Origin: a virus
Taxonomy: Duplodnaviria; Heunggongvirae; Uroviricota; Caudoviricetes
DNA length: 64,000 nucleotides
Reading direction: 5' to 3' (one strand)
IMG/VR virus record: IMGVR_UViG_2778261571_000004
The translations under genes and the position numbers were made by a program. The notes beneath the pieces were generated by a model, which saw only the letters and a program-made list of their open reading frames with translations, was not told the DNA's origin and searched no databases. This document shows, one piece after another, positions 4,880-24,119 of the stretch; positions within the stretch are counted from its first letter, which is position 1; every line of letters begins with the position of its first letter.

Positions 4880-5209
4880 TTACGCGAATACCTCAAGAAA
4901 CTCCTGAACGTCCCAATGCTGGACGAGGTGAAGATAGACCTTAGAAATCACGTCATTTTCGCTATCGCATGTGAAGTAGTACTTCTGGCTGCGGTTGTAT
5001 GTGTCCACACAAAATTCGCTCATATCCATAAAGTCAGCATCTTCACCCATGTCGCAAATCATCAAAGCAGGTGCGTCATCACGAGTCATCAGCTCAAGCA
5101 CCCACCGCGAATTAATCAGAGTGGAAGACCAACCTTCTAACTCATAAAACTGATCAAACTCTTTTTGAGTTAATTTCTTAATTTGGTTGATGTCGATATT
5201 TGCAAACAT
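4880..5209 (-). CDS. hypothetical protein (start at Met8 of track ORF)
   Basis: AAGGAT SD before Met8; motif-1 about 13 nt upstream. Confidence 0.45.
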   Translation of the reverse strand: MFANIDINQIKKLTQKEFDQFYELEGWSSTLINSRWVLELMTRDDAPALMICDMGEDADFMDMSEFCVDTYNRSQKYYFTCDSENDVISKVYLHLVQHWDVQEFLEVFA

Positions 5210-5220
5210 AAAGCAATCCT

Positions 5221-5237
5221 TAAACAACATGTTTTCT
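5221..5237 (-). promoter_or_regulatory. motif-1 palindrome (AAACAACATGTTTTC), approximate
   Basis: Recurrent motif 5' of SD. Confidence 0.45.
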
Positions 5238-5568
5238 TGATGGTGTTATTATCGCAATAACGCAAAGGCGAAAAAGGATTTTATTCCGGTGAATGTGGTT
5301 TTGGCAGTGAGTTTTCAGGTTCAGTACCGAGTACACTTTTTACATTATTCTGATTTAGTGGCCGAAGGTGGCTGGTGGGCAGAATAATCATCTCCCCGAA
5401 AACCTACTGAAATCGATTGTGACCCGTTGGCTGTCTGGCACAATTACGCTGTAACTGGGCATTCAGAGGGAGTCCAACGGTAAGTTAGTCCGCCTACGTG
5501 AGCGCCTCTCTTCTTCCCGCACATTACAGGTGGATAGCCGCAACTCTCCCTCTCGCTATACCGGTACG

Positions 5569-5700
5569 CCGCCGTTCCTGAACCGGCATCGAGCCTTTTC
5601 CCGAAATCCACACAGGCAACTCGACCGTTTCCCTGAAAACCTCCAGCCGTTCCCCGAAGGCAACCCAGCCGTTTCTGTAGCGGGATGCAGCCTTTTCCCT
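5569..5700. repeat. array of 6 direct repeats (consensus about AGCCGTTTCCCGAAA) at 21-23 bp periodicity, approximate
   Basis: Units at about 5569, 5592, 5623, 5645, 5667, 5688; iteron-like helical phasing. Confidence 0.5.
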
Positions 5701-5849
5701 TATGGACCGGAGGCTGACCGTAGGGGTGTTACGGGGGATAAAATCAGGAGTTGAATAAATACGAAAAAGGAGGCGACACCCCTCCTTCCCTCCCCACTTA
5801 TACATACCTGTCTTGTTCGCTATACATGTTGTGTTTTCTTCGTGTTTTA

Positions 5850-6660
5850 TCTGTCTCAACCTCTCTATAGGCGTTAATGCTCACTCCTTCCAGAACGTTC
5901 TATACGGCGACTAATTCTGTTGGTGAATTGGGTGTGTTGTTCTCTCTGTCGGTGTAAATGGTTTCGTTCGTTTTGCGGTGGTTCTTCTATGGGGTGTTCT
6001 CGTCGTTTTGGTGATTGTTCTTCTCCGTCTATGGAGTAATGGCAGGTGGGCGATTGCTTTCGTTATTGTGTTTGAGTTGTTTGTCTGGAGTGTGTGAAAG
6101 GCTTTTGTAGTTATTCGTGTATTGGGTAATGGCGTTTCCCGTGATTGTTATGTTTCGTGTCTTTTGGGGTTGAGAGAAACCTTGCGGTAACAGGCTTCGT
6201 TGGGGTTTCAGTGATTCTGGTGTTTCTTCGCTGTTTGGGGAATGGCGTGTCGTGGGTATCGCGCGTATGAATGTTTTCGGATTGCCTGTGAAAGTTAGGT
6301 TGGTTGTCCGGTAGCCTGGGAAGAAGAGGTGGGTCTTTTCGGTAGCCTGCCATAAAGAGGTTGGTTGTTTTGGGGAATGGCATATGTGTTATTTAGTTGT
6401 TTTGTTATGCCTGAAAATAAGTTGTTTATATGGTTGTGTAACGCAATGGGAGTGATTTTGAGCGTGTGTTTTTGTTGGTAGTGTGTTGGTCGTCTGTGGT
6501 GAAAATTGGACGCTGTGGCGCTGTCTGCTGCGTAGAATTACGGGTATAAGCAGTGATGTGTGAAAACGTCAATTTTTTAGACCAAATCGGGTGAAAGCGT
6601 TGATGTTTCGTTGATCTGTTATTCAGTTGTTTCCTTGATTGTATAAACAACTATAACTTA
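5850..6660. other. G+T-rich, strand-asymmetric non-coding region with short repeats
   Basis: No credible ORF on either strand; plus strand is strongly G/T-biased; contains the 62-bp element at about 6308..6370. Confidence 0.45.
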
Positions 6661-6781
6661 TTGATATTTAAGGGTGTGATTGCAGGTATGGAAGGAGAGT
6701 AGTGGCGATCAACGGATTCTTATAGAAAAGAATCAAATTGTGACCGCCATTATCAACTGATTGATTTGTTTACTTGTGTAG

Positions 6782-7180
6782 TCAGTTCTCGAAATGAATA
6801 GGGTCAACGTAATGCCGCTCACCGCTTTTACCATTACACAGCACTGTAACTTTCGCCTTTTCACTCCAGGCTGAGTATAGAAAGTTCCCATCAGGTTGAA
6901 CATGGTAACGAGAGAAGTAAACATCGCCGACTGAGGCGTCGAACATGTTCCTATCTTTTTCACTTTGGGCAAGCGAGATGGATATCACCGAATTCCCATT
7001 TGGGGAAACGATTTTAAATTTATTCCCTATATCCATAACAATATTGTAACCAGGTAATTGCTTGTGTGTTTCCGGATCTATTTTCATGCATCGTGGGTAC
7101 ACGATAGTGTTAGGCTCTTCAACTGGCGTGGCATTAGCAGAAAGCACAAAAAATATTAGTGCCAATGGTGCATATTTCAT
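6782..7180 (-). CDS. predicted secreted/periplasmic protein (N-terminal signal peptide)
   Basis: N-terminus MKYAPLALIFFVLSANA is signal-peptide-like; GAGGGA SD. Confidence 0.5.
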   Translation of the reverse strand: MKYAPLALIFFVLSANATPVEEPNTIVYPRCMKIDPETHKQLPGYNIVMDIGNKFKIVSPNGNSVISISLAQSEKDRNMFDASVGDVYFSRYHVQPDGNFLYSAWSEKAKVTVLCNGKSGERHYVDPIHFEN

Positions 7181-7474
7181 TTATCCCTCACAATTTCCAA
7201 TTTTCCAGACCATCGTCTATTTCAGCGTCAGGGTGGAATTGTACCGCATCAAATCCTACATCGAGCACCTTTCGAATGTTCTTGATGGTTTGCTATGTGA
7301 CACCGTAATCACGCAGCTTTTCTTCCCTCCCCTGACTCCCCCATACTCCGTTTCTGTACCCAATTGAGTCCGAGATCGTATGGTGCTCGAAACAGATATT
7401 TGGTAGACACTCAGAGTCATGCTGTGTAACGAGGGTAGGGCTACTAACTGTCGTCTTATACAATTTGGTGAGTT

Positions 7475-7723
7475 TCAGCATTTTACCACCCCGTTCGGAA
7501 ACAACTCATTCGCCGTAGTTGATATAACCTCCCAATTAACGCCGACATCAGCGTTATGGCATTGTCTGATTTTTTGCATCACCTGTACGCATTGTTCATC
7601 AGTGAGATCTGTCCTTACTTCAGCAATATCTTCTTTGTGCCACATAACCATGAGTAAGGGTTCGTCTTCTGGATAGTTTTTCAGTTTCTCGATGATTTCT
7701 TTTGCTGTTCCAAACATCTTCAT
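7475..7723 (-). CDS. hypothetical protein
   Basis: 82-aa ORF, GGAG SD, two motif-1 palindromes upstream. Confidence 0.5.
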   Translation of the reverse strand: MKMFGTAKEIIEKLKNYPEDEPLLMVMWHKEDIAEVRTDLTDEQCVQVMQKIRQCHNADVGVNWEVISTTANELFPNGVVKC

Positions 7724-7727
7724 CTCC

Positions 7728-7744
7728 TAAACAATTTGTTTTCT
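7728..7744 (-). promoter_or_regulatory. motif-1 palindrome (AAACAATTTGTTTTC) abutting the SD, approximate
   Basis: Second copy about 50 nt further upstream (7777..7795), flanking a TTGTTG-17-TATAAG sigma70-like promoter. Confidence 0.45.
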
Positions 7745-7776
7745 TATATGGCTTATTATCTCAATCAACAAAAGGT

Positions 7777-7795
7777 AGAAAACAAATTGTTTTAG
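7777..7795 (-). promoter_or_regulatory. motif-1 palindrome, upstream copy, approximate
   Basis: gaaaacaaattgtttt. Confidence 0.45.
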
Positions 7796-7831
7796 GGCTT
7801 GTGTAAATCAGGAGGGATTGTGTCTATATGA

Positions 7832-7858
7832 AAATGCCCAGCGTATTGCTGGGCATTG
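7832..7858 (-). terminator. metG rho-independent terminator hairpin (gcccagc..gctgggc), approximate
   Basis: Stem-loop followed by T-rich tract immediately after the metG stop. Confidence 0.55.
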
Positions 7859-7876
7859 TGAAGAATGGTTGCTTAA

Positions 7877-9910
7877 TTACTTAACCTGGTGGCCAGGTTT
7901 AGCACCGACATCCGGGCTTAACAGGAAGATATCTTTCCCGCCAGGGCCAGCAGCCATCACCATGCCTTCGGAGATACCGAAGCGCATTTTACGCGGAGCC
8001 AGGTTAGCCACCATAATGGTGTGACGACCAATCAGTGCCTGTGGGTCTGGATAAGCAGAACGGATGCCTGAGAAGACATTGCGTTTTTCACCGCCGAGAT
8101 CCAGTGTCAGACGCAGCAGCTTGTCAGAACCTTCAACAAACTCTGCGTTTTCGATCAGCGCCACGCGCAGGTCAACTTTGGCGAAGTCGTCAAAGGTGAT
8201 GGTTTCCTGAATCGGGTCGTCAGCCAGTGGGCCAGTTACCGGTGCGGCTGTGGCTTTCACTTCTTCTTTGGATGCTTCCACCAGTGCTTCCACCTGTTTC
8301 ATATCGATACGGTTATACAGTGCCTTGAACGGATTCACTTTATGGCCCAGCAGCGGTTGCTGGATACCATCCCAGGTCAGTTCTGTATTCAGGAATGCTT
8401 CTGCACGTTCAGTCAGTTTCGGCAGTACCGGCTTCAGGTACGTCATCAGCACGCGGAACAGGTTAATGCCCATAGAGCAAATCGCCTGCAGATCGGCATC
8501 GCGTCCTTCCTGCTTCGCCACCACCCACGGAGCCTGTTCATCGACATAGCGGTTAGCCAGGTCAGCCAATGCCATGATTTCACGGATAGCTTTACCAAAT
8601 TCGCGGCTTTCCCATGCTTCGCCAATCACTTCAGCGGCATCAGTAAAGGTTTTGTACAGTTGCGGGTCAGCCAGTTCGTTTGCCAGCACGCCGTCAAAAC
8701 GCTTGTTGATAAAGCCTGCATTACGGGAGGCCAGGTTAACCACTTTGTTCACGATATCGGCATTCACGCGCTGAACGAAATCCTCCAGGTTGAGATCGAT
8801 ATCATCAATGCGCGAAGAGAGTTTCGCAGTGTAGTAGTAACGCAGGCTGTCAGCGTCAAAATGATTCAGCCAGGTGCTGGCTTTAATAAAGGTGCCGCGA
8901 GACTTGGACATCTTCGCGCCGTTCACCGTCACATAGCCATGAACAAACAGGTTGGTCGGCTTGCGGAAGTTGCTGCCTTCCAGCATGGCAGGCCAGAACA
9001 GGCTGTGGAAGTAAACGATATCTTTACCGATGAAGTGGTACAGCTCGGCGGTGGAGTCTTTCTTCCAGTATTCATCGAAGCTGGTGGTATCGCCGCGCTT
9101 GTCGCACAGATTCTTGAAGGAACCCATGTAGCCAATCGGCGCGTCCAGCCAGACGTAGAAATATTTGCCCGGCGCGTCCGGAATTTCAAAACCGAAGTAA
9201 GGCGCATCGCGGGAGATATCCCACTGTTGCAGGCCAGATTCAAACCACTCCTGCATTTTGTTTGCCACCTGCTCCTGCAACGCGCCGCTGCGGGTCCATG
9301 CCTGCAACATTTCGCTGAAAGAAGGCAGATCAAAGAAGAAGTGTTCGGAATCACGCATTACCGGGGTAGCGCCAGAAACCACCGATTTCGGCTCGATCAA
9401 TTCAGTCGGGCTATATGTTGCGCCGCAGACTTCACAGTTATCGCCGTATTGATCTGGCGCTTTACATTTCGGGCAGGTGCCTTTTACAAAACGATCCGGC
9501 AGGAACATGCCTTTTTCCGGGTCGTACAACTGAGAGATAGTGCGGTTTTTAATAAAACCGTTCTCTTTCAGGCGAGTATAGATAAGCTCAGACAACTGAC
9601 GGTTCTCTTCGCTGTGCGTCGAGTGATAGTTGTCATAGCTGATGTTAAAGCCTGCGAAATCAGTCTGGTGTTCCTGACTCATTTCGCCAATCATCTGTTC
9701 CGGTGTGATACCAAGCTGCTGTGCTTTCAGCATGATCGGCGTACCGTGGGCATCGTCGGCACAGATGAAATTAACCTCGTGGCCGCGCATTCGCTGGTAA
9801 CGAACCCAGACATCAGCCTGGATGTGCTCCAGCATATGGCCGAGGTGGATTGAGCCGTTAGCGTACGGCAGCGCGCACGTCACCAGAATTTTCTTCGCGA
9901 CTTGGGTCAT
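7877..9910 (-). CDS. metG: methionine--tRNA ligase
   Basis: 677-aa product from Met44 of the track ORF; near-identical over its length to enterobacterial MetG as I recall it (HLGH and KMSKS class-I motifs, CPKC..CEVCG zinc knuckles). Confidence 0.95.
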
Positions 9911-10067
9911 AGTAGGCATTACTTCTTTGTAGTGAAAAGGGGCTTGATAGTAACAAAATGGCCTTATGTCTGCCATGTGATAACAGCATTTCTCATAAAT
10001 GATTAAATGTCGTAGCTGGAGTACACTACAAGGCGACAATTGCGCAAATTAAAATAAAGGAGACGGG

Positions 10068-11168
10068 ATGAGCGAGTCCAAATCGCCGGATGCCCTGAGA
10101 GCAATGGTAGCCGGTACGCTGGCTAATTTTCAGCACCCAACCCTGAAACACAACCTGACTACGCTTAAAGCGTTACACCATGTTGCGTTGATGGATGACA
10201 CACTGCATGTCGAACTAATCATGCCTTTCGTGTGGAATAAGCCTTTTGAAGACCTGAAAGAGCAATGTAGTGGTGATCTGCTCCGTATCACTGGCGCAAA
10301 GGCTATCGACTGGAAGCTGTCGTACAACATTGCCACGCTTAAGCGCGTCAAAAACCAACCAGGCATTAATGGCGTTAAGAACATTATCGCCGTCAGCTCA
10401 GGCAAGGGCGGTGTAGGCAAATCGTCCACAGCAGTAAACTTGGCACTGGCGTTGGCTGCTGAAGGTGCGAAAGTTGGTATTTTGGATGCCGATATCTACG
10501 GTCCATCAATTCCAACCATGCTGGGTGCGGAAAACCAACGTCCAACCTCACCGGACGGCACTCACATGGCACCTATCATGTCTCATGGCCTGGCAACCAA
10601 CTCAATTGGTTATCTGGTCACTGACGACAACGCGATGGTGTGGCGTGGCCCGATGGCGAGCAAGGCGTTGATGCAAATGTTGCAAGAAACCTTATGGCCG
10701 GATCTGGATTATCTGGTGCTCGACATGCCGCCAGGCACCGGTGACATTCAATTGACACTGGCGCAAAACATTCCTGTAACTGGTGCGGTTGTGGTAACTA
10801 CGCCGCAAGACATCGCGCTGATCGATGCGAAGAAAGGCATTGTGATGTTCGAAAAAGTCGAAGTGCCGGTACTAGGTATCGTCGAAAACATGAGTGTGCA
10901 TATTTGCAGTAACTGCGGTCATCACGAGCCAATTTTTGGCACCGGTGGCGCACAGAAACTGGCCGAGAAATACAACACGCAGTTGTTAGGCCAAATGCCA
11001 CTTCATATCTCTCTTCGTGAAGATCTGGATAACGGAACACCAACCGTTATTAGTCGTCCAGATAGCGAATTTACGGCTATTTATCGTGACCTCGCAGATC
11101 GCGTTGCTGCCCAAATGTATTGGCAAGGTGAAGTAATACCTGGCGAAATCGCATTCCGCGCAGTGTGA
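10068..11168 (+). CDS. apbC: Fe-S cluster carrier ATPase ApbC/Mrp
   Basis: P-loop SSGKGGVGKS, ParA/Mrp family, CxxC near C-terminal half; divergent from metG as in enterobacterial chromosomes. Confidence 0.9.
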   Translation: MSESKSPDALRAMVAGTLANFQHPTLKHNLTTLKALHHVALMDDTLHVELIMPFVWNKPFEDLKEQCSGDLLRITGAKAIDWKLSYNIATLKRVKNQPGINGVKNIIAVSSGKGGVGKSSTAVNLALALAAEGAKVGILDADIYGPSIPTMLGAENQRPTSPDGTHMAPIMSHGLATNSIGYLVTDDNAMVWRGPMASKALMQMLQETLWPDLDYLVLDMPPGTGDIQLTLAQNIPVTGAVVVTTPQDIALIDAKKGIVMFEKVEVPVLGIVENMSVHICSNCGHHEPIFGTGGAQKLAEKYNTQLLGQMPLHISLREDLDNGTPTVISRPDSEFTAIYRDLADRVAAQMYWQGEVIPGEIAFRAV

Positions 11169-11205
11169 TAAAAAGGCGGTGCAATGCACCGCCTAATCAG
11201 CTCTC

Positions 11206-11595
11206 CTACATCACGGGACAATCATCAAACTCGCCACTTCTTGCGTCGTTGATAATGTGAGTGATCACACCAAACACGGCATTGCTGCCCGTGCATCCAT
11301 CGTCATCCTTTGGCAATGCTTCCTTCTTACCGGTTCTTAAATCCTCCAGATGCTGACGTGGGTACTTCCGGTATCTTTTTACGCGATATTCCCCATCCAG
11401 AGCGCATACAAGCAGAGAACCATCAACCGGGGTAAGTGAGGAATCGACCACCAGCAATGCACCCTGTAATATTCCCTCACGATGATGACTATCAGCTGCC
11501 CTCATGAAGTAGGTCGCTGAAGGATGTCTAATTATCTGCTGATCAAGAGAAATACGGCTCTCAGCATAATCCGCCGCAGGAGAAGGGAAGCCCAT
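11206..11595 (-). CDS. UmuD'-like S24 peptidase-family protein that begins at the UmuD autocleavage site (no N-terminal arm)
   Basis: Starts M-GFPSPAADY, matching UmuD from Gly25 onward; Ser (ADSHH) and Lys (VKRYRK) of the S24 dyad are present; an in-frame stop lies 4 codons upstream of the ATG. Confidence 0.7.
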   Translation of the reverse strand: MGFPSPAADYAESRISLDQQIIRHPSATYFMRAADSHHREGILQGALLVVDSSLTPVDGSLLVCALDGEYRVKRYRKYPRQHLEDLRTGKKEALPKDDDGCTGSNAVFGVITHIINDARSGEFDDCPVM

Positions 11596-11613
11596 AGCGT
11601 TTTCACCTCAGAA

Positions 11614-11633
11614 TACTGTTTATCCATACAGTA
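11614..11633 (-). promoter_or_regulatory. LexA (SOS) box TACTGTATGGATAAACAGTA upstream of the UmuD'-like gene, approximate
   Basis: Perfect CTGT-N8-ACAG about 20 nt 5' of the GAGGTGA SD. Confidence 0.65.
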
Positions 11634-11759
11634 TACATTAAAGATGCTTGAAGTGTGCAATAGCGCGATGCTTTGCGCTCGCCTGGTGGTGCGTTATTTT
11701 TTGGCTATATCTTCTTTCTGATATACCGGATCGTTTCCTTTTGGCAGCAGGAGGCTTAA

Positions 11760-11957
11760 CTACCGGTAGTGCCGTAGCCGTTCCATGAAATAGGTGCGCA
11801 GGTTCTCAGGTTGCTCACGGGCTACCTGTTCCGCTATGACGGGTATGTTCAATCGCTCTTTGTAGGCAACCCCCCTGGCAGCCAGGTCAACGTTAACTTT
11901 ATTCCTTTCTTCCTGGCTTTTAGCTGCTATGTTCCATTCGTTCATATTAAATCCCAT
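11760..11957 (-). CDS. small hypothetical protein (65 aa)
   Basis: ORF only; no family recognised. Confidence 0.3.
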
Positions 11958-12413
11958 CCAGAATAATTGAATAACGGCTATTATTTAGTCGCCGCAATAT
12001 CTTCAAAGTTTTTTTTCTCACCCCATTGCTTTTTGCGCACAGCTTATCTGGCTTGCGGTGCGCGAAATGTAAATTCGCCTTCAGAGTTATCCACAAAGTT
12101 ATGCACTTGCAACGGGGCCATTTTCCTCATACCGTGTTTGCACACACAGGAAATGGATATTTTATTAATTGAATTTTATTAAATAATAATGATAAGGAGA
12201 AAATTTGAGATGTAATCATGACATTAATAGATAGGGCCTGCATTACAGGCCCCAACTACATCAAGGAATTCACAGTTCCCTGATTTTTATACCGAAAACA
12301 TGTGCCGTAAGTTCACGTTAACGACTTTCTTTCACCGAATCCAACTATATAGAGGTTGGGTTTCTACGTCAACGTGAGAGCACGCAGCTTTACATTAGAC
12401 GAGGATTACCCTG

Positions 12414-12551
12414 ATGATTGTATTTTTTCAGTTTCTAAGTGCATTTTTAAATGCGCCTGTTCTTAGCCAAGTGCTGGCGATTGTCTTCATCGTGGTTCTG
12501 ATATGGTTTTTCAAGTCAGTGATAAACAGAGGCGTGCGCTGGCTTATTTAA
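12414..12551 (+). CDS. candidate small hydrophobic membrane peptide (about 45 aa), approximate
   Basis: ATG with GAGGA SD about 8 nt upstream; product MIVFFQFLSAFLNAPVLSQVLAIVFIVVLIWFFKSVINRGVRWLI; not in ORF track (<60 aa). Confidence 0.3.
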   Translation: MIVFFQFLSAFLNAPVLSQVLAIVFIVVLIWFFKSVINRGVRWLI

Positions 12552-13083
12552 TGTCGCGATGAGATATTAATTCCCTTGCTGTTTAACCATTTTTTGTGTG
12601 TGCTGGTGAGCGTGTGAAGGCTCAATTTGTTGCCCACCAGTATTTACTATTTCTAAGCTCCACAGTGTCACTTCCGCACAAACAACTTAGCGCGGAATCA
12701 GTATTCGGCCCAAGATGTAAAAAGCCAACCTGCGTTATGGTTCGCATTTCCAAATAGTGTTCTGAACGCCCTTGCCGGGCGCGAGATGTAGATTAGCGTT
12801 CACGCTATGCTGATATACGGCTTTAGACTTTCCATATTGCTGACAGGCTTTATCTGCGGTTTTTTGCAGGCTATCCAGCCCATACCAGCCATCAGACTGG
12901 ATGCTTACCTTTTCACCGTCATTGTATTGCACCATCGCGCACCCAAACATGGCTATCATCGCACCGACAATACCACTTTTCCAAAAAGCTCTAATTAGGT
13001 CATTCGTTACCTAATGTCCGAACTGCTAAAGCATCCAAGTTGCTGTAGAATCACCGCCAATTACATAAGCCTGAAATAAGTGG

Positions 13084-14642
13084 ATGAAAATGACAAGTAT
13101 TCAACAACGTGCAGAGCTTCATCGTCAAATCTGGCAAATTGCTAACGATGTCAGGGGTTCGGTCGATGGATGGGATTTTAAGCAATACGTTCTGGGCGCA
13201 CTTTTCTACCGTTTTATCAGCGAAAATTTTTCCAGTTATATTGAAGCCGGTGATGACAGTATCTGTTATGCGAAACTGGATGACAGCGTAATTACTGATG
13301 ACATTAAAGACGATGCCATCAAAACTAAAGGCTACTTCATCTACCCCAGTCAGCTTTTCTGCAACGTAGCTGCGAAAGCAAATACTAATGACAGACTGAA
13401 TGCAGATTTAAACAGCATCTTCGTTGCTATCGAAAGTTCTGCTTACGGTTATCCTTCAGAAGCAGACATCAAAGGTTTGTTTGCTGATTTCGATACCACC
13501 AGTAACCGCCTGGGTAACACCGTTAAAGATAAAAATGCCCGCCTGGCTGCGGTTCTGAAAGGGGTTGAAGGGTTAAAACTTGGTGACTTCAACGAACATC
13601 AGATTGACCTGTTCGGTGATGCCTATGAGTTCCTGATTTCTAACTATGCGGCAAATGCCGGTAAGTCAGGCGGTGAGTTCTTTACACCGCAGCACGTCTC
13701 CAGGCTGATTGCACAACTGGCAATGCATGGCCAGACCCACGTTAACAAAATCTACGACCCGGCAGCGGGTTCCGGCTCACTGTTGTTGCAGGCGAAAAAA
13801 CAGTTTGATAACCACATCATCGAAGAAGGCTTTTTCGGTCAGGAAATCAACCATACGACCTATAACCTGGCGCGTATGAACATGTTTTTGCACAATATCA
13901 ACTACGACAAGTTTGATATCAAGCTGGGTAATACACTGACTGAGCCGCACTTCAGAGATGAAAAACCGTTTGACGCCATCGTATCTAACCCACCGTATTC
14001 GGTGAAATGGATTGGCAGCGATGACCCGACGCTGATTAACGATGAGCGTTTTGCCCCGGCTGGCGTTCTGGCCCCCAAATCCAAAGCTGACTTTGCGTTT
14101 GTATTACATGCACTGAACTATCTTTCTGCCAAAGGTCGTGCTGCGATTGTCTGCTTCCCGGGTATTTTTTACCGTGGCGGCGCGGAGCAGAAAATCCGTC
14201 AGTATCTGGTCGATAATAACTATGTCGAAACCGTGATTTCACTGGCACCGAACCTGTTCTTTGGCACCACCATTGCAGTAAACATTCTGGTGCTGTCTAA
14301 ACATAAAACGGATACCAACGTTCAGTTTATTGACGCCAGCGAACTGTTCAAAAAAGAGACTAACAACAATATCCTGACCGATGCCCATATCGAACAGATT
14401 ATGCAGGTATTTGCCAGCAAGGAAGATGTTGCTCATCTGGCGAAATCTGTCACGTTTGAGACCGTTGTCGCGAATGACTATAACCTGTCGGTAAGCAGCT
14501 ATGTGGAAGCGAAAGATACTCGCGAAATTATCGATATCGCTGAGTTGAATGCAGAACTGAAAACCACGGTCAGCAAAATCGACCAGTTGCGTAAAGATAT
14601 TGATGCGATTGTGGCTGAAATTGAAGGCTGCGAGGTGCAGAA

Positions 14643-14646
<4 letters not shown>
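13084..14646 (+). CDS. hsdM: Type I restriction-modification methyltransferase subunit HsdM (Type IC, EcoR124-family)
   Basis: 520 aa; NPPY catalytic motif (NPPYSVKW), AdoMet motif [10 protein letters not shown]; matches my recollection of EcoR124 HsdM. Confidence 0.9.
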
Positions 14647-15890
<1,244 letters not shown>

Positions 15891-16011
15891 TTGACCATTG
15901 CTACCGACCGGGCCACCTTAACACCCGGTCTGTATATAGACTATTTTTTACGCGCCGGAAGTCACTCTTAACGCCCTTCCGGCCCTTGCCAGGCGGCACA
16001 AAGGATGCGCT

Positions 16012-19000
16012 ATGACTCATCAAACACACACCATTGCTGAATCCAATAACTTTATCGTCCTTGATAAGTACATCAAAGCTGAGCAAACAAGCGACAGCTA
16101 CCAGAGCGAATCGGACCTGGAACGTGAACTGATTCAGGACCTGCGGAATCAGGGTTATGAATTTATTTCCGTAAAATCACAGTCGGCAATGCTGTCCAAT
16201 GTTCGGGAACAGCTTCAGAGCCTCAATGGTGTGATGTTTAATGACAGCGAGTGGCGGCGCTTCACGGAGCAGTATCTGGACAATCCCAGCGATGGTATTC
16301 TGGATAAGACCCGTAAAATCCATATCGACTATATCTGCGACTTTATTTTTGACGACGGGCGTCTTGAGAACATCTATCTGATCGATAAAAAGAATCTCAT
16401 GCGCAACAAAGTGCAGATTATCCAGCAGTTTGAACAGGCAGGTTCTCATGCTAACCGTTATGACGTCACGATCCTGGTTAATGGCTTGCCTCTGGTGCAA
16501 ATCGAACTGAAAAAGCGCGGCGTGGCGATTCGTGAGGCTTTCAACCAGATACATCGTTACAGTAAAGAGAGTTTTAACAGCGAAAACTCCCTGTTTAAGT
16601 ATCTGCAACTGTTTGTCATTTCTAACGGCACCGATACCCGTTATTTTGCCAACACAACAAAGCGCGATAAAAACAGTTTTGATTTCACCATGAACTGGGC
16701 GAAATCAGACAACACGCTGATTAAAGACCTCAAAGACTTTACCGCTACCTTTTTCCAGAAACATACTCTGCTGAATGTTCTGGTGAACTACAGCGTGTTT
16801 GACAGTAGTCAGACGCTACTGGTGATGCGACCGTACCAGATTGCCGCCACCGAGCGCATTCTGTGGAAAATTAAGAGCTCCTTTACAGCGAAGAACTGGT
16901 CAAAACCGGAAAGCGGTGGGTATATCTGGCACACTACCGGTTCTGGTAAAACCCTTACCAGCTTTAAAGCCGCGCGTCTGGCAACAGAGCTGGACTTTAT
17001 TGATAAAGTCTTCTTTGTGGTCGACAGAAAAGACCTCGATTACCAGACCATGAAGGAATATCAGCGTTTTTCGCCAGACAGCGTCAACGGCTCGGAAAAT
17101 ACCGCAGGCCTTAAACGAAATCTGGATAAGGACGATAACAAAATTATCGTCACTACTATTCAGAAACTCAATAACCTGATGAAAGCAGAAAGCGACCTGC
17201 CTGTATATAATCAGCAAGTGGTGTTCATATTTGATGAATGCCACCGCAGCCAGTTTGGAGAAGCGCAGAAAAACCTGAAGAAGAAATTCAAACGCTATTA
17301 TCAGTTTGGTTTTACCGGCACCCCTATTTTCCCGGAAAACGCCTTAGGCTCAGAAACAACCGCCAGCGTATTTGGTCGTGAATTGCATTCGTATGTAATT
17401 ACCGATGCGATTCGTGACGAAAAAGTGCTCAAATTCAAGGTGGACTACAACGATGTGCGGCCACAGTTTAAGTCTTTAGAGACAGAAACTGACGAGAAAA
17501 AACTAAGTGCGGCTGAAAATCAGCAGGCGTTTCTTCATCCCATGCGTATTCAGGAAATCACGCAATATATTCTGAATAATTTCCGCCAGAAAACTCACCG
17601 TACCTTCCCTGGCTCAAAAGGTTTTAATGCTATGTTGGCAGTGAGCAGCGTGGATGCCGCGAAAGCCTATTATGCGACGTTTAAACGGTTACAAGAAGAA
17701 GCCGCTAATAAATCGGCTACCTATAAACCGCTGCGTATTGCGACAATCTTCTCCTTTGCCGCTAATGAAGAACAAAATGCCATTGGTGAAATTTCCGATG
17801 AAACTTTTGATACCAGCGCAATGGACAGCAGTGCTAAAGAGTTTCTGGACGCTGCAATTCGTGAATATAACAGCCATTTTAAAACTAACTTTAGCACCGA
17901 CAGTAACGGTTTTCAGAACTACTATCGTGATTTAGCCCAGCGGGTTAAAAATCAGGATATCGATCTGTTAATTGTCGTTGGGATGTTTTTAACCGGCTTC
18001 GACGCTCCAACATTGAACACGCTATTCGTCGATAAAAACTTGCGTTTTCACGGCCTGATGCAGGCATTTTCCCGCACCAACCGTATTTATGATGCAACTA
18101 AAACCTTCGGTAATATCGTCACTTTCCGGGATCTGGAACGCTCAACCATCGATGCCATAACGCTGTTTGGTGACAAAAACACCAAAAATGTAGTGTTAGA
18201 AAAGAGTTATGCAGAGTATATGGAAGGCTTTACTGATGCTGCTACAGGTGAAGCTAAACGCGGCTTTATGGCAGTAGTTTCAGAACTGGAACAACGGTTC
18301 CCTGACCCTGCCAGTATTGAAAGTGAAAAAGAGAAGAAAGACTTCGTTAAACTGTTTGGCGAATACCTGCGTGCCGAGAACATCCTGCAAAACTATGATG
18401 AATTTGCCACGCTGAAAGCCCTGCAACAAATCGATCTTAGCGATCCTGTTGCGGTAGAAAAATTCAAAGAAGAACATTATGTGGATGATGAAAAGTTCGC
18501 TGAATTGCAAACGATTCGTCTCCCTGCTGAACGCAAGATTCAGGATTATCGTTCTGCCTATAACGATATTCGTGACTGGCAGCGCCGCGAGAAAGAAGCT
18601 GATAAAAAAGAAAAATCAACCACTGACTGGGATGACGTGGTTTTTGAGGTCGATTTGCTGAAGTCTCAGGAAATAAACCTGGATTATATCCTTGGACTGA
18701 TTTTCGAACACAACAGACAAAATAAAGGCAAGGGCGAAATGATCGAAGAGGTCAAACGCTTAATTCGTTCAAGCCTGGGGAACCGGGCGAAAGAGGGCCT
18801 GGTGGTCGATTTTATTCAGCAAACGAACCTGGATGATTTACCAGACAAAGCCAGCATCATTGACGCGTTCTTTACCTTTGCTCAACACGAACAGCTACGT
18901 GAAGCAGAAGCGTTGATTAAAGAAGAAAATCTCAATGAAGAGGCGGCGAAACGCTATATTCGCACGTCTTTAAAACGCGAATACGCCACCGAAAATGGCA

Positions 19001-19128
19001 CAGAATTAAACGAGACATTACCAAAACTTAGTCCGTTAAACCCGCAATATAAAACGAAAAAACAGACGGTTTTCCAGAAAATCGTCACGTTTATTGAAAA
19101 GTTCAAAGGAGTAGGTGGGCAGATATAG
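16012..19128 (+). CDS. hsdR: Type I restriction endonuclease subunit HsdR (Type IC)
   Basis: 1038 aa; SF2 helicase motifs (TGSGKT, DECH) and N-terminal nuclease domain; length matches EcoR124 HsdR as I recall it. Confidence 0.9.
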
Positions 19129-19186
19129 TGTATTAATCTGAACCAGATCTGGCAGATATCTGTGCAAATTGCAGATAGCTGTCAGA

Positions 19187-19663
19187 TCAAGCCATCGTAG
19201 GGATGTCTGTATCCACTTTGAACTCCGGTACACCAACGAACTCTTTAACCTTCATCTGATAGCCGGTTCTGTCAGTTTTGATGACTTCCTGCTTGCCCTC
19301 GATAAATTGCTCACGCCACTCGTCGCGACGGGAAGCTGGCATGATCAGCAAAACGTTAGTCATATCCGTGACCTTCCTCCAGTACTCGGCCCAAATATTC
19401 TGTTTCACCCATTCCAGATCGACTTTATCCAGCCAAGCTCGATTCAAACGTGAGCGTTCTTCATCTGGTCGATGGTTCAGTTGCAGCAGGCGATTAATCA
19501 TGTTGTGGCGTTCGTCGCCATAAACGAAGTCGTGAACCTGATACATGAAGGCGATCTCTTTCTCGCACTCGGCTACGATTTCGTGGATGACGTTCATTTC
19601 CTGACGATAATCGATAGCAGTGTTTGAGTTGGTATCGTCGATGATGGAAAGAGCTGTATTCAT
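19187..19663 (-). CDS. hypothetical protein (158 aa), convergent with hsdR
   Basis: ORF only; weak SD; no motif-1 or motif-2 upstream. Confidence 0.45.
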   Translation of the reverse strand: MNTALSIIDDTNSNTAIDYRQEMNVIHEIVAECEKEIAFMYQVHDFVYGDERHNMINRLLQLNHRPDEERSRLNRAWLDKVDLEWVKQNIWAEYWRKVTDMTNVLLIMPASRRDEWREQFIEGKQEVIKTDRTGYQMKVKEFVGVPEFKVDTDIPTMA

Positions 19664-19766
19664 AATTGCACCATTAAGAAAAGATTTGTTTAATAGTGCA
19701 ATTATTTCAAAAATGAAAAGGTGCTAAATAGAAATTAACAGGCAATCCTTTAAATAAAGGTATTTG

Positions 19767-20381
19767 CTAATCATACTTTGAGGTATTTATAACCAGGATT
19801 TTGTTTGTATAAATCTTCTTAATATCCCATGTGACATTACCGGAATACCATTGACCGTTATATACTTGGTTTCCAGTTGCACCGGTCATAGTTACATAGA
19901 CAGGTCTGTCGTAATCGGTTCGTCTATAGTTATAAACCCCAACCATAGCAGGCATTACTGCGCACGGATACCCCATATCTATTGTAAATTGTGGGTCAGT
20001 AATAGTGATAAGTTTTGCATCAAGGGGCATCATCTCACCGTGATACACCATTGCGCCTGCGCTGTTATACATGGCAATGCCATAGCCAGAATGTGGTAAC
20101 ACCATATCAGAAAAAGCATAAACTGTTATTGTTCCGGGGCTACCATTTACCTGATGCAATCTGAGAGCATTGTATCCGTTACTATGTTCATGAATAAACA
20201 TCATGTTCGCCTTATTGCTGCTTTTTATGAAGAAAAAGCATGATTTGTTTGATGGGATTGATGTTTGAAAAACAGAACCTTTAGATGTAGACATTGTCCC
20301 TTTATTAATCAGATTTTGCGGAGTAAATTCAGGACTCATCCACAAACTTCCATCTGATTGAGTAATTGACATCCCGAACAT
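19767..20381 (-). CDS. hypothetical N/T/Y/G-rich protein (start at Met20 of track ORF 19767..20438)
   Basis: ATG lies 2 nt after the stop of 20384..20665; AT-rich region distinct in composition from neighbours. Confidence 0.4.
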   Translation of the reverse strand: MFGMSITQSDGSLWMSPEFTPQNLINKGTMSTSKGSVFQTSIPSNKSCFFFIKSSNKANMMFIHEHSNGYNALRLHQVNGSPGTITVYAFSDMVLPHSGYGIAMYNSAGAMVYHGEMMPLDAKLITITDPQFTIDMGYPCAVMPAMVGVYNYRRTDYDRPVYVTMTGATGNQVYNGQWYSGNVTWDIKKIYTNKILVINTSKYD

Positions 20382-20383
20382 AA

Positions 20384-20665
20384 TTATCCCCAGTATGTGT
20401 ATATGTAAGAACCAAGCCCCGTATATAAATTTGACCAACTAACCGTATTTCCATTAATAGTAACATTTGGAACAGGTAAATTGATGTAGTTGTCGTTGTT
20501 AAGAGGCATTAATGACCACACGGCATGTAGTGATTTACCCGGTGGCGGATTAGAGTACGTCTTAGAGCCTGATGACGCCGTAAATCGATCAAGAAAAAAA
20601 ATAGGTGTAAGGAAGCCAGTAACGTTAATTCCTTTATTGTTGTAAATCCCTGTACCGTATGCCAT
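20384..20665 (-). CDS. hypothetical N/T/Y/G-rich protein (93 aa)
   Basis: ORF tightly coupled to downstream ORF; AT-rich. Confidence 0.4.
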   Translation of the reverse strand: MAYGTGIYNNKGINVTGFLTPIFFLDRFTASSGSKTYSNPPPGKSLHAVWSLMPLNNDNYINLPVPNVTINGNTVSWSNLYTGLGSYIYTYWG

Positions 20666-20719
20666 TTTTCACCCTTGTTTTTATCAACACAATATGGCCG
20701 ATCATGCGGCCATATCAGA

Positions 20720-21289
20720 TCAATTAGAGCTTTGAAAGACTTTGTGTGGTTGTGTTGCGAGGTTATGTCGATGGCTTAACTCACGCATCATGTCTTCAAG
20801 GCGACTCTTTGTGTCGTCGAGTTGGTCGGCCATTGCTCCCAAAAGCTGACGAACGGCCATCGGATCATCGCTGTTTAGTGATGGCATTTTATAACCCGCC
20901 TGAGAAGACATAAGATTGAACGCAGACATCAACATCGTTAGAGAGGATTTAAGCCCAGCAATTTCACGATCTTTGCTGGCAATAATCGTCTCACTCTTGT
21001 TAGTGTCATCAGTTCGTTGAGTCTCGCTCACCATATCCAAAGTCGCCTGCAACTTATCAGCGCGCTCTTTTTCAGCAAGATAATGAACACCGAAATGATG
21101 TGCTAAAGCTACAACCTGAGTTGGCTCTTCAAAGGTGGACTCAAAATTAAGTGCTGTAACCACTCTCTCAAATATGGAAACGTCTTCTATTCCTCGAAGA
21201 ATGGCTAACATTTTGACCAGTTCATTAGCATCCATTTCTTCGAATAAGGCGTTTTGTTCATCAGCTATCGCTTTGCATTTCTTACACAT
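20720..21289 (-). CDS. hypothetical protein (189 aa)
   Basis: AGGAAAAACAC-ATG initiation context shared by backbone genes; motif-1 upstream. Confidence 0.5.
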   Translation of the reverse strand: MCKKCKAIADEQNALFEEMDANELVKMLAILRGIEDVSIFERVVTALNFESTFEEPTQVVALAHHFGVHYLAEKERADKLQATLDMVSETQRTDDTNKSETIIASKDREIAGLKSSLTMLMSAFNLMSSQAGYKMPSLNSDDPMAVRQLLGAMADQLDDTKSRLEDMMRELSHRHNLATQPHKVFQSSN

Positions 21290-21304
21290 GTGTTTTTCCT
21301 AATT

Positions 21305-21325
21305 CTTAAACAAGTTGTTTTCTTA
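21305..21325 (-). promoter_or_regulatory. motif-1 palindrome (TTAAACAAGTTGTTTTCTTA), approximate
   Basis: Recurrent motif 5' of SD. Confidence 0.45.
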
Positions 21326-21586
21326 TTGGCTTTATTGTGATGTGGCATAAAAGGGGAGCAAGCTAAACGTAAAGGTGCAAACTCTCTATTTCGGTCAACG
21401 AAACACAAGGGCCATTTGGCCCTTGTCATTAACACGTTGCTTTACGGACTAGCGGATAAGCGAAGTAGATCGCCAGACCAATGAGGACGCCATCAGAAAT
21501 GACAGACATCATCTTTCCCGTAAAATCCACCAACACCGCCATCACCAGAAGAGCAATGACGGTCACAAGCCGGAATCTCTCAAGCA

Positions 21587-22012
21587 TTAGAGATAAGCAT
21601 CCAGTGACAACTGAAGCGCCTGGGCGATCTTTTTCAGTGCCTGCTCTTCTTGTTCACCAATGCCGTCCTGGTCGGCAATATCAAGGCACAGACACAGAAC
21701 ATCGACCGCCTCTGGAGTGCCCGCAATATCAGCCAGCTCACGCATAGCCTGCGCATTCGCAGAACGAGGGGACGCTTCGTAACGAGCACGGATATTGGCG
21801 CTCATTTGGGCAATTTCACCAGCAAACGGAGAAAACGCAGGCAGAGCTGCAATTGTCTTCTCAAGAATGGCAATTTCTTTTGCGTCACATGTGCCGTCGG
21901 CATAGGAGATCATGTACGCGCCCCACACGGTGGCCTCAACCGCATCACGGTTCTCCATTTTTTTGACTTCGATAACAGCTTTACGAGTTTTCTTTTTGAA
22001 GAAACCTAACAT
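21587..22012 (-). CDS. TerB-like domain protein (tentative)
   Basis: Segment YADGTCDAKEIAILEKTIAAL resembles TerB-type acidic motif; weak, from memory. Confidence 0.35.
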   Translation of the reverse strand: MLGFFKKKTRKAVIEVKKMENRDAVEATVWGAYMISYADGTCDAKEIAILEKTIAALPAFSPFAGEIAQMSANIRARYEASPRSANAQAMRELADIAGTPEAVDVLCLCLDIADQDGIGEQEEQALKKIAQALQLSLDAYL

Positions 22013-22033
22013 GTGTTTTCCTTTTGTTATTTG

Positions 22034-22052
22034 TCAAAACAAGTTGTTTTAT
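22034..22052 (-). promoter_or_regulatory. motif-1 palindrome (AAAACAAGTTGTTTT), approximate
   Basis: Recurrent motif. Confidence 0.45.
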
Positions 22053-22105
22053 AGTTTCATAAATTGCTTACGCAAAGATGGTCAATGCATATGCACTAAC
22101 AGCCG

Positions 22106-22294
22106 TCAGAAATAACCAAGTACCGAACCGACTGGAAAAACAAAAATCCCTACTACACGAGCCAGAGTCATGCCAGCCTGAAACTTGAGATCACCTGAGC
22201 AAACGAGTTTTATAATGTTGGATACCCAACCGGCGGCCATGAGAGCCAGAATTGCCAGCCAAATTTTCCCAAAGTGATTTGAAAGCCAGTTCAT
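22106..22294 (-). CDS. small membrane protein (62 aa)
   Basis: Hydrophobic segments; AAGGTGG SD; ATGA overlap with stop of 22291..22542. Confidence 0.45.
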   Translation of the reverse strand: MNWLSNHFGKIWLAILALMAAGWVSNIIKLVCSGDLKFQAGMTLARVVGIFVFPVGSVLGYF

Positions 22295-22542
22295 ACAACC
22301 ACCTTAGTCACAACATGATCCTGAGTAACTGGATGAACTTGAGGTATCGCATCCACCGTCATCCCATCCAGAGTGACAGGACGCTCTACTGTAGTGGTGG
22401 TAATTGTCGTCGACGGAGGTGTGGTGATGGATGAACCCGGCATCAAAAGGCTCTGGCCGGCTGGAACGGCTACCGTCGCCAGTGAAACTATAATGAGAAC
22501 GTAGGCCATTGGTTTCAGCCTCTTTCTTTGAAAATTTTCCAT
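22291..22542 (-). CDS. small secreted/membrane-anchored T/P-rich protein (83 aa; possible start at internal Met)
   Basis: Basic N-terminus + hydrophobic core + AVPA-GQS signal-peptidase-like site; AAGGA SD; embedded out of frame in 22304..22798. Confidence 0.35.
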   Translation of the reverse strand: MENFQRKRLKPMAYVLIIVSLATVAVPAGQSLLMPGSSITTPPSTTITTTTVERPVTLDGMTVDAIPQVHPVTQDHVVTKVVV

Positions 22543-22798
22543 TCGAACTGTCCTTGTTGTTTTTCTCCTTCACTAAAGGCCGTGTACTTTTCGCTTCGCG
22601 TGAAGAACCAGAGGCAACAATCGCCCCCACGTTCGCAACAACTGACGCTTGATTATCTAAACGTTCATTCAGCAACCGAACGGTAGTCTCTAGTTCATCA
22701 AGACGTGACATAACACGACCGCTAAACAATTCGGCCAAAATTTGACGTAAAGAACGAGGACGTTTAGTTGCAGAAGTGAAATAGGTTTGACGTGCCAT
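22304..22798 (-). CDS. hypothetical protein; N-terminal about 80 aa coiled-coil-like, C-terminal half low-complexity and overlapping 22291..22542
   Basis: Two long overlapping frames; only one may be real over 22304..22542. Confidence 0.35.
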   Translation of the reverse strand: MARQTYFTSATKRPRSLRQILAELFSGRVMSRLDELETTVRLLNERLDNQASVVANVGAIVASGSSREAKSTRPLVKEKNNKDSSNGKFSKKEAETNGLRSHYSFTGDGSRSSRPEPFDAGFIHHHTSVDDNYHHYSRASCHSGWDDGGCDTSSSSSYSGSCCD

Positions 22799-22943
22799 GT
22801 GGACTCCATCCAGTGTCAGAAAGAGTTGCGGCTGGCGATTGCCAGCCGCCTTTCTCGTTCCATCCTGGAACTGTGTCTTACCGACACATTGTCATCCTGA
22901 CGCTGATAAGATACATGATTTAAAATGATAGGTAAACACTTAC

Positions 22944-23537
22944 TTACCACTTGTTATAAACAAAACCAATATCTTTCTTGTGAGGCATATCTGCTGCTGA
23001 AAAAGCTGCGATCTTCGCGAGTCGATCACATATTTCATTTTCACGATGCCCGGCGTGACCTTTAACCCACTTCCAGCGAACATTATGTCGACTTGCGGCC
23101 TCATCCAGACGCTTCCACAGATCAACATTCTTTACCGGTTTTTTGTCAGAAGTCATCCATCCATTGCGTTTCCACCATTTCATCCACTGTGTCATGCCGT
23201 TTTTCAGATACTGGCTATCAGAGTGCAAAATAACGTTGCATGGATATTTCAAACGCTCCAGCCCGATAAGTGCGCCCATCATCTCCATGCGGTTATTGGT
23301 GGTGCTATGAAAACCATCTGAGAACTCGCGTTCCTCACCACGATACTGGAGAACGATACCGTAACCGCCCGGGCCACCCGGATTTTTAAGGCAAGAGCCA
23401 TCACTAAAGATTTTCACGGTTTTGAGCTGGGGATTGAACTCTACGACAGGCGTTGTGGGATTGGTGCGGGGAGAATTTTTGTTTTTGGCTTTTTTGCGAG
23501 TTTTTGCTTGCGATCGGGCTGGTGTCTTCGTCGTCAT
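22944..23537 (-). CDS. rnhA: ribonuclease HI with lysine-rich N-terminal extension
   Basis: DGSC..GPGGYG..TNNRMEL..HSDSQY..VKGHAGH..NE.CD motifs as in bacterial RNase HI; AGGAG SD before Met18 of the track ORF. Confidence 0.8.
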
Positions 23538-24119
23538 ATAAACTCCTGAATCAAGCGCCGCGCCGATTTTTTCCTCGCGCGTGCGCACACGCGTGCGTGT
23601 TAATAATTATTAAAATAAACAAATTACTTCCCAGAACAGGTTTTTATAAACCTGAACTGAACGAACGAAGTGAGTGAAGTTCACCTCGAACGAAGTGAGA
23701 GGTTGTCTTTTCAGGTAATACTCTCCCAGGGAGGTGAGTATAAAATTCCTCACCAACCTGGTCGTTTCATAACCTGAAAAGCTATGGTCTAAGTCTACTG
23801 CCAGCTTAGACTTGGGAAGTTATGGATGACAGCACCCCAGAACCGAGATCTTCCCACACTTTATGAAGGGGAGTACTGGATTCAACCTCTCGAAACACCC
23901 CAGACTCGACAATCATAAAGTGACCCTTGTCTCTGCTCACTTTGGTTCCCCCTTCCCCGACACCTATACGGCACCGGTTCTACGCTGGTAGTGAGCTTTT
24001 TTAAACCTGACGCCAGTGACGCTTACCCCCACCCATCAGGTCGAGCCTCCAGTCTACGACTGGAAACTATCATATCTTAGCACTTACAATTCACTTTATG
24101 AATAGTTTGTACTTATCTA

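Follow-up and report, generated by a model that had tools for sequence, protein, structure and literature searches.

The window analysed here is a 64,000-nucleotide stretch of viral DNA (IMG/VR virus record IMGVR_UViG_2778261571_000004), and it carries, inside the backbone of a phage-plasmid, additional genes for methionyl-tRNA synthetase (MetRS; metG) and for the Fe-S cluster carrier ATPase ApbC (apbC, also known as mrp). This metG-apbC pair is derived from a bacterial chromosome and is a true second copy. The window very probably represents the early and replication half of an SSU5-supergroup phage-plasmid of the Escherichia/Shigella pLF82-Cyrano-pWPMR2 type, in which the segment from 7.8 to 19.2 kb is an accessory slot filled by three separately acquired modules. 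These are metG-apbC (7.8-11.2 kb), the P1-like genes humD and hot, and a Type IC restriction-modification (R-M) system, hsdMSR. The finding is real, ordinary for this family and already known; it is not new because both components have been described, the auxiliary metG as part of SSU5-type phage-plasmids and the Type IC system as a neighbour of P1-like DNA. Only two points might be new: metG and apbC differ in age, and apbC is under purifying selection.

The phage-plasmid backbone and its accessory slot

When positions 7000-21500 were compared by megablast, the phage matches were Cyrano (pLF82 of E. coli LF82), two CMS-2020a records and PhiR41_1, and the plasmid matches amounted to 2,084 records, 36 of which had a query cover of at least 80% at 96-98% identity. 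Among the matches listed, these high-cover plasmids are non-mobilizable and measure ~108-120 kb, with one exception of 198 kb; the relatives as a whole are closed circular molecules of 105-120 kb. The gene order of the window is that of the annotated plasmid pHXH-2 and of Cyrano, and the latter is colinear with the window at 96-98% nucleotide identity over positions 1-2416, 3219-6756, 7724-11643 and 19183-24000. SSU5 matches both flanks of the slot at 69-80% nucleotide identity. A replication module is also present. The open reading frame (ORF) at 40366-41580 encodes RepA, a Rep3-type initiator with a Rep3_N domain, and 17 copies of an iteron of ~20 nt (core TATGCTGyCAGCGGT) are found on both sides of its gene between 40364 and 42116; this region is the plasmid origin. 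Other backbone genes of the window encode DNA polymerase III (Pol III) alpha, ribonucleotide reductase, SbcCD-like proteins, a RecA-like protein with an intein and a tyrosine recombinase. Cyrano has been described as an SSU5-like phage-plasmid that makes siphovirus particles, has a copy number of 5.5 per chromosome in LF82 and is induced 39-fold by ciprofloxacin (PMC9928086). The colinearity with plasmids and Cyrano, the gene content and the description of Cyrano together identify the flanks as phage-plasmid backbone and not as ordinary chromosome, an option that the earlier note on this DNA had left open. The proposal made there, that accessory cargo sits in a phage-plasmid backbone, is borne out by the colinearity with Cyrano and pHXH-2. 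A point against the assignment is that the 64 kb of the window, as the early, replication and accessory half, contain no virion genes, and phage competence rests on the relative Cyrano.

Within the supergroup, the window shares with Cyrano/pLF82 the same backbone and the metG-apbC-humD block at the same position. It differs in carrying hot and the Type IC hsdMSR in place of the Ea22-type genes and the intact DUF4942 methyltransferase gene of Cyrano. The likeness to pWPMR2 is drawn through Cyrano and the plasmid copies of Shigella sonnei. In a large survey, the pWPMR2-like elements belong to SSU5 clade K, reported without defence systems, and E. coli/Shigella elements with R-M, PrrC or other systems belong to SSU5 clade J (bioRxiv 10.1101/2025.09.12.675607); clade J fits the window better than clade K. 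With the supergroup prototypes SSU5 and pHCM2, the window has in common the homologous flanks of the slot and the order of RNase H, DUF4942 methyltransferase and small early genes. The slot of SSU5, in contrast, is without metG, apbC, humD and a Type I system, and contains Eaa, HD phosphohydrolase, LprI-like and YdfZ-like genes. Of 50,697 phage records, no more than four carried a MetRS of this type, all of them SSU5-type phages of E. coli.

The alignment with Cyrano also defines the limits of the modules. Colinearity is unbroken over 7724-11643, which includes metG, apbC, humD and the LexA box. It is lost over 11644-19182, where the window has hot, P1 upf-like DNA and hsdMSR and Cyrano has Ea22/Eae/Eaa-type genes and the intact methyltransferase gene, and from 19183 to 24000 the backbone returns at 97.6% identity to Cyrano. 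The right junction is marked by a 5' remnant of 158 codons of the backbone DUF4942/DNA-methyltransferase gene (19187-19663, minus strand), which matches residues 1-157 of the 561-aa CYRAN_90 at 97% and positions 1-150 of the 548-position DNA methyltransferase profile phrog_6263; the full-length counterpart in SSU5 is SSU5_095. Since Cyrano keeps the full methyltransferase gene and the window only its 5' part, the hsd cassette replaced earlier content and truncated the backbone gene. The earlier note had described the cargo as one island with its right end at position 20700. Measured against Cyrano, it separates into three modules with separate histories, and its actual right end is at ~19182, the last 1.5 kb being backbone. 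In this last part there are two "moron"-type membrane-protein genes (19767-20665, minus strand; phrog_425 and phrog_557), colinear with Cyrano and showing 66-76% identity to genes of JenP and Stx phages.

The short motifs and the base composition of the backbone change across the segment. For the palindrome AAACAAnTTGTTT, 0.47 sites are expected in the window and 12 are present, all of them outside 7793-21307, and a ATAAGTAnTTACTTAT-like motif occurs at ~13 loci against 1.7 matches expected, with none within 4348-22927; the absence of palindromic motifs across the segment, seen at the first reading of the sequence, was therefore correct. Because the gap covers 21% of the window, we estimate the probability that both motifs skip it by chance at ~0.003. 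An ATG start context had also been ascribed to both flanks; this was not the case, because the eight sites of AGGAAAAACACATG (0.77 expected) all lie at 21287 or beyond and none is in the left flank. At the left cargo edge, two copies of AAACAAnTTGTTT (7729-7741 and 7780-7792) are located upstream of the backbone ORF 7475-7723 (minus strand). The first backbone signature on the right is found at 21287-21320 (minus strand), with AGGAAAAACACATG at 21287-21300 and the palindrome at 21308-21320. Over its whole range (2234-7792 and 21308-58060), AAACAAnTTGTTT precedes several minus-strand gene starts at a short distance and is often separated from AGGAAAAACACATG by 10-20 bp, and it looks like an operator or promoter element of early operons. 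Within the segment, only metG-apbC has a raised GC content, at 0.50-0.52 compared with 0.39-0.47 for the flanks.

The raised GC over metG-apbC and the backbone palindromes missing from the segment are the two observations that favour a different explanation, also put forward in the earlier note: a chimeric or mis-joined assembly, or the arms of an integrated element that flank the chromosomal metG locus. However, identical joints are present in the 36 independently closed circular plasmids and in four phage records, and the metG allele lies 5.6-6.6% away from every E. coli chromosomal metG. Moreover, the homology to the chromosome ends at both stop codons, and the genes that flank the pair there, the DUF4132 gene and yehE, are absent. 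This explanation is already refuted by the closed relatives, and we regard its probability as practically negligible.

The auxiliary metG-apbC pair

The auxiliary metG (7877-9910, minus strand) encodes a full-length MetRS (677 aa) that comprises the catalytic domain, the zinc knuckle, and the domains for anticodon binding and C-terminal tRNA binding. The product matches the NCBIfam equivalog NF001100 with 1019.9 bits (cut-off 587) over positions 3-676 of 676, and the motifs HLGH, KMSKS, CPKC and CEVC, the last two corresponding to both zinc knuckles, are intact. The adjacent apbC (10068-11168, plus strand) encodes a product of 366 aa that reaches 759 bits against NF008669 (cut-off 348), and it is divergent from metG as on the chromosome. 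The first impression of near-canonical genes in their native layout thus agrees with full-length equivalogs and intact motifs.

The search for a second metG, proposed in the earlier note as a comparison with the host chromosome, was carried out on 5,426 complete E. coli genomes. It gave 5,424 chromosomal places at 93.4-94.4% nucleotide identity and 220 plasmid places at 95.6-99.2%, and the gap between the two groups is empty. The 4-kb metG-apbC-humD block is present in 217 of these genomes (~4%). When metG is aligned with its counterparts in E. coli, Escherichia sp. E1V33 and Citrobacter, its homology to the chromosomes stops at its stop codon, and that of apbC likewise ends at the apbC stop codon. 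The identity gap, the end of homology at the stop codons and the absence of the chromosomal neighbours show that the plasmid metG is a distinct, additional allele lineage. Both ORFs are intact in ~190-220 plasmids from E. coli, Shigella sonnei, E. albertii, E. fergusonii and E. marmotae.

Outside the two coding sequences, the surroundings differ from those on the chromosome. Downstream of metG there is a terminator-like hairpin (7830-7856, minus strand), ATGCCCAGC-loop-GCTGGGCAT followed by a T run, which is non-homologous to the terminator that follows metG on the chromosome. A GC-rich hairpin at 11174-11194, where apbC and humD converge, is absent from the chromosome and is likely a bidirectional terminator. 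The divergent control region shared by the two genes (9911-10067) is unlike that of E. coli and has an insert resembling the one of Citrobacter werkmanii, with a sliding identity of 0.43-0.62 to E. coli and of 0.62-0.80 to C. werkmanii. A promoter and terminator scan of 7.6-13.2 kb gave counts not above those of shuffled sequence, and it served only to annotate single sites.

At the protein level, MetRS has 99.7% amino acid identity to the Cyrano copy and 99.6% to the copy of the S. sonnei plasmid NZ_CP099775.1. It differs from the E. coli K-12 enzyme at 11 of 677 residues, most of them being states seen in other enterobacteria; S151A and A554T look lineage-specific. ApbC is at least 99% identical in 189 plasmids, and its differences are concentrated in the first 90 residues and in the tail at the C-terminus, with none in residues 90-298, the ATPase core. 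The hyper-persistence mutations reported for metG are S264F, G263S, a deletion of 569-572 and a frameshift at 626 (PMC11004401), and none of these four changes is present in this MetRS. We also considered a resistance-type synthetase that bypasses its target and rejected it, since only 11 of 677 residues differ and the catalytic motifs and persistence sites are unchanged. The isoleucyl-tRNA synthetases (IleRS) encoded by mupA and mupB are plasmid-borne, divergent and inhibitor-insensitive, and confer drug resistance. They share with the case described here the condition of a second synthetase gene on a mobile element, whereas the MetRS of the window is 98.4-98.8% identical to the host enzyme and is matched by the mupA/mupB models with only ~33 bits. 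In an Escherichia marmotae plasmid of 166 kb (NZ_CP146383.1), two MetRS-matching places were observed on one record, a parallel to the multiple and variable copies of metG reported in S. sonnei.

To our knowledge, extra copies of essential translation genes are rare on mobile elements. The expectation in the earlier note that a second synthetase on such an element would be unusual is consequently right in general, but not for this case, which has been described (PMC12452169, citing Tam et al. 2024). Literature searches linking SSU5 or phage-plasmids directly with metG or methionyl-tRNA synthetase returned nothing relevant.

Both genes are under strong purifying selection, with a ratio of nonsynonymous to synonymous divergence (dN/dS) of ~0.02-0.03. 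Between the plasmid and E. coli K-12, metG has a dN of 0.008 and a dS of 0.28 (dN/dS 0.028), and apbC a dN of 0.035 and a dS of 1.46 (dN/dS 0.024). Between the window and Cyrano there are 25 synonymous and 2 non-synonymous changes in metG, and 45 and 0, respectively, in apbC. Tracts imported from the chromosome would carry variation that selection has already filtered there, and purifying selection on the plasmid may look stronger than it really is.

The ages of the two genes are discordant. The divergence between plasmid metG and E. coli is about that between E. coli and Escherichia sp. E1V33 (dS from K-12 of 0.28 in both cases), and by neighbour-joining the plasmid metG falls inside Escherichia. 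The plasmid apbC, with a dS of 1.35-1.46 from E. coli, is equally far from E. coli and from Citrobacter, and it is placed on a long branch beside Escherichia. The dS between the plasmid and C. werkmanii is 1.41 for apbC and 0.78 for metG; K-12 and C. werkmanii are separated by 1.18 and 0.74, respectively, and the apbC genes of K-12 and E1V33 by 0.58. The GC content at third codon positions (GC3) is 0.526 in the plasmid apbC and 0.62 in the chromosomal one, against 0.615 and 0.625 for metG, and the polarised apbC changes on the plasmid branch comprise 42 from GC to AT and 13 from AT to GC. The discordance in dS (1.4 against 0.28), the drift of GC3 in apbC and the form of the spacer suggest an old capture, after which apbC would have ameliorated towards the 45%-GC backbone and metG would have been replaced or refreshed from Escherichia chromosomes. 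The pair was probably taken from an Escherichia-related chromosome, cut to the two coding sequences and their shared control region, and provided with new terminators.

As for the donor, the contig scan for apbC and metG gave, among the matches listed, two Escherichia-type loci and no chromosome of E. albertii, E. fergusonii or E. marmotae. In a protein search for the donor of apbC, the plasmid ApbC did not separate from the E. coli and Salmonella clusters of the 90%-clustered collection. A record labelled Enterobacter hormaechei strain B56 (CP170191.1, positions 2764-6034) carries metG and apbC identical to those of K-12-like E. coli (Kimura two-parameter distance 0.0), and it is probably a mislabelled E. 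coli genome.

Chromosome-like tracts in apbC differ from plasmid to plasmid, being found at ~10355-10504 in Cyrano and at ~10655-10754 in the window, with an identity to E. coli of 0.92-0.94 in one plasmid and of 0.78-0.86 in the other. This patchiness suggests gene conversion between the chromosomal and the plasmid copies, some of it ongoing. In metG, the central stretch 8785-9084 is 97-99% identical to E. coli, against 89-93% elsewhere in the gene. Since this stretch is alike in the three plasmids compared and is also the part most conserved between species, gene conversion inside metG is only suggestive.

The evidence on selection bears on whether the pair might be a neutral passenger, brought in by illegitimate recombination and without a selected function. 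The pair corresponds to the plain native chromosomal neighbourhood and SSU5 and Klebsiella members do without it, both of which would agree with such a passenger, and the polymorphism among plasmid copies may partly have been imported from the chromosome by gene conversion. However, the low dN/dS is maintained on a branch long enough for the GC3 of apbC to move from 0.62 to 0.53, the ORFs remain intact in plasmids of five species, and the flanks were cut exactly to the stop codons, with new terminators added. The strong purifying selection on both genes therefore disfavours a neutral passenger, which we consider quite improbable.

The other two modules and further backbone features

The second module begins with humD (11206-11595, minus strand), which encodes a P1-type homologue of the pre-cleaved UmuD'. 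The product matches the HumD equivalog NF051876 with 219.8 bits (cut-off 120) over positions 1-129 of 129. A LexA (SOS) box, TACTGTTTATCCATACAGTA, with the form TACTGT-N8-ACAGTA (11614-11633), is located 19 bp upstream of humD and overlaps a -10-like hexamer; a LexA binding site just upstream of humD is also annotated in the P1 record. The earlier note had read this locus as a LexA-regulated UmuD'-like gene, and the equivalog match confirms the UmuD'-like gene, while the perfect SOS box makes its regulation by LexA probable. The gene for a Pol III theta homologue, hot (11760-11957, minus strand; Pfam DNA_pol3_theta, 100.7 bits), belongs to the left part of the swappable cassette (11644-12998), together with P1 upf-like DNA to ~12608 and small ORFs. 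Homology to P1 extends over 11216-12608 in two pieces. The arrangement resembles the humD-lxr-hot region of phage P1 in the HumD equivalog, the LexA box directly upstream and hot, with ~83% nucleotide identity, which is also the value between the two humD genes. It differs from P1 in the lack of lxr, since no lxr ORF was found in the 164 bp between humD and hot, and in the absence of the P1 neighbours phd-doc and pmg. Transcription of humD, which hot adjoins, would be repressed through LexA; as the box overlaps the promoter, humD should be on under the DNA damage that induces the phage.

The third module comprises three genes on the plus strand. The Type I methyltransferase subunit (520 aa; TIGR00497, 649 bits) is encoded by hsdM (13084-14646), and the Type IC specificity subunit, of 415 aa with three TAEL repeats and two target-recognition domains, by hsdS (14643-15890). 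The gene hsdR (16012-19128) encodes an EcoR124-type restriction subunit of 1038 aa that aligns with PDB 2w00 over residues 1-1038 (2268 bits) and has the PF12008 EcoR124_C domain (E = 1e-71). The three ORFs are uninterrupted and, with HsdR equivalent to 2w00 from end to end and the TAEL repeats, the complete hsdMSR of the EcoR124 family named in the earlier note is present. The N-terminal, central and C-terminal regions of HsdS align to the EcoR124II HsdS chain (7bst), and both target-recognition domains differ from those of EcoR124. In comparison with pHXH-2, which is otherwise 97-98% identical, the only large break (14697-15750) lies inside hsdS and corresponds to a swap of specificity domains. 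As the target-recognition domains differ from pHXH-2 and from EcoR124, the specificity of HsdS was evidently reshuffled within the family.

The whole cassette (12998-19128) has 96% nucleotide identity to cassettes of the P1-like phages phi456 and vB_EcoM-673R5. The annotation of the P1 genome notes 96-98% identity between P1 segments and the DNA on either side of the hsd loci of EcoDXXI and R124/3, so that a link between Type IC systems and P1-like DNA is already documented. The cassette is similar to EcoR124I/II and EcoDXXI in the full length of HsdR, the conserved regions of HsdS, the TAEL repeat, the order hsdM-hsdS-hsdR and the P1-like DNA nearby. It differs from EcoR124 in having three TAEL repeats, against two in the solved chain, and its own target-recognition domains, and from EcoR124 and EcoDXXI in being located in an SSU5-type element and not in a conjugative plasmid or a P1-type element. 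It very probably arrived by recombination with P1-like DNA, and it destroyed the backbone methyltransferase gene. With a specificity that is probably its own, it would restrict incoming DNA and favour retention of the element.

Some further features of the backbone were observed. Four tRNA genes, Ser-TGA, Thr-TGT, Tyr-GTA and Asn-GTT, are located at 61100-61797 (minus strand); the tRNA scan of the window found no tRNA-Met among them, despite the extra MetRS, and Rfam and tRNA scans gave nothing inside the island. At 50204-50622 (plus strand), the Rfam model of the cspA thermoregulator is matched over its full length (187.6 bits, gathering score 78), together with a cspA-like ORF, another chromosome-type translation/cold-shock gene on the element. 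The RecA-like ATPase of 779 aa (43759-46098, minus strand) is split by an intein with Intein_splicing and LAGLIDADG_3 domains. In the left flank, the plus strand of 5900-6650 is G+T-rich, with a GC skew of +0.32 and an AT skew of -0.25 over 6001-7000; it contains only low-complexity ORFs, matches Cyrano at 97.6% and may represent either a non-coding RNA or DNA with a structural role. The intervals 2417-3218 and 6757-7723, which are not colinear with Cyrano, are extra small variable slots, and the ORF 6782-7180 gave no family match.

Possible role of the pair and its meaning for the family

In our analysis, the most likely role of the pair is that an added dosage of MetRS, and of ApbC, shapes growth heterogeneity and antimicrobial survival. 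This role is derived from the published work on the phage-plasmid metG of S. sonnei and from the link between chromosomal metG and persistence. In PMC12452169, which cites Tam et al. 2024, the phage-plasmid metG of Shigella sonnei pWPMR2 is linked to antimicrobial survival, and the expression of S. sonnei phage-plasmid metG is reported to give a sub-population predisposed to third-generation cephalosporin resistance. Chromosomal metG is an established tolerance/persistence locus. By comparison with the S. sonnei relative, the metG of the window may have the same role; the cassette would add a wild-type-like MetRS and ApbC from an element at ~5 copies per chromosome, the value of Cyrano in LF82. 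In the lysogen, the Cyrano apbC homologue CYRAN_99 is transcribed 9-fold above the local background (PMC9928086). The pair would be expressed, and linked to tolerance, in the element of the window as well.

Several points weigh against the tolerance role. All the metG persistence alleles that we know of reduce function, and a gain of tolerance from an extra wild-type-like copy has no mechanism in the analysis. In LF82 grown in lysogeny broth (LB), the Cyrano metG was not among the genes transcribed more than 5-fold above background, whereas apbC was (PMC9928086). Furthermore, the tolerance phenotype comes from a secondary citation and from the S. sonnei relative, and not from the element of the window.

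The main rival to the tolerance role is a benefit that goes directly to the element. The pair would then serve the phage-plasmid itself, through the charging of Met-tRNA, translation initiation and Fe-S maturation in replication or lytic growth, or it would act as a spare or decoy against host defences or toxins that hit the methionine branch. Such a benefit would be in agreement with the other host-type genes aboard, which include the four tRNAs, the cspA homologue with its thermoregulator, Pol III alpha, theta, ribonucleotide reductase, ThyX and DHFR, and with the strong purifying selection on both genes through a long residence. In addition, apbC, for which no role in tolerance is known, shows the same tight conservation as metG, and the lysogen expresses it. 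On the other hand, the element carries no tRNA-Met, SSU5 and its Klebsiella relatives live without the cassette, and antimicrobial survival is the sole phenotype published. We consider it rather unlikely. It is about equally doubtful that metG-apbC is an ancient, jointly selected unit, with metG replaced or repeatedly refreshed by gene conversion, whose main benefit goes to the phage-plasmid (translation initiation, Fe-S supply, evasion of host systems acting on Met-tRNA or MetRS) and for which tolerance is a side effect.

Whatever the beneficiary, the window is one more member of the family and nothing categorically new. Its clinical weight lies in the connection of phage-plasmid metG with antimicrobial survival in epidemic Shigella sonnei. 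A plasmid metG occurs in ~4% of complete E. coli genomes and also in E. albertii, E. fergusonii and E. marmotae. Three details are useful. The cargo slot is modular, and its defence cassettes are swapped with P1-like elements. Both metG and apbC are under purifying selection on the element. Furthermore, the two genes differ in age, which suggests that the pair was captured long ago and that metG was later replaced or altered by gene conversion.

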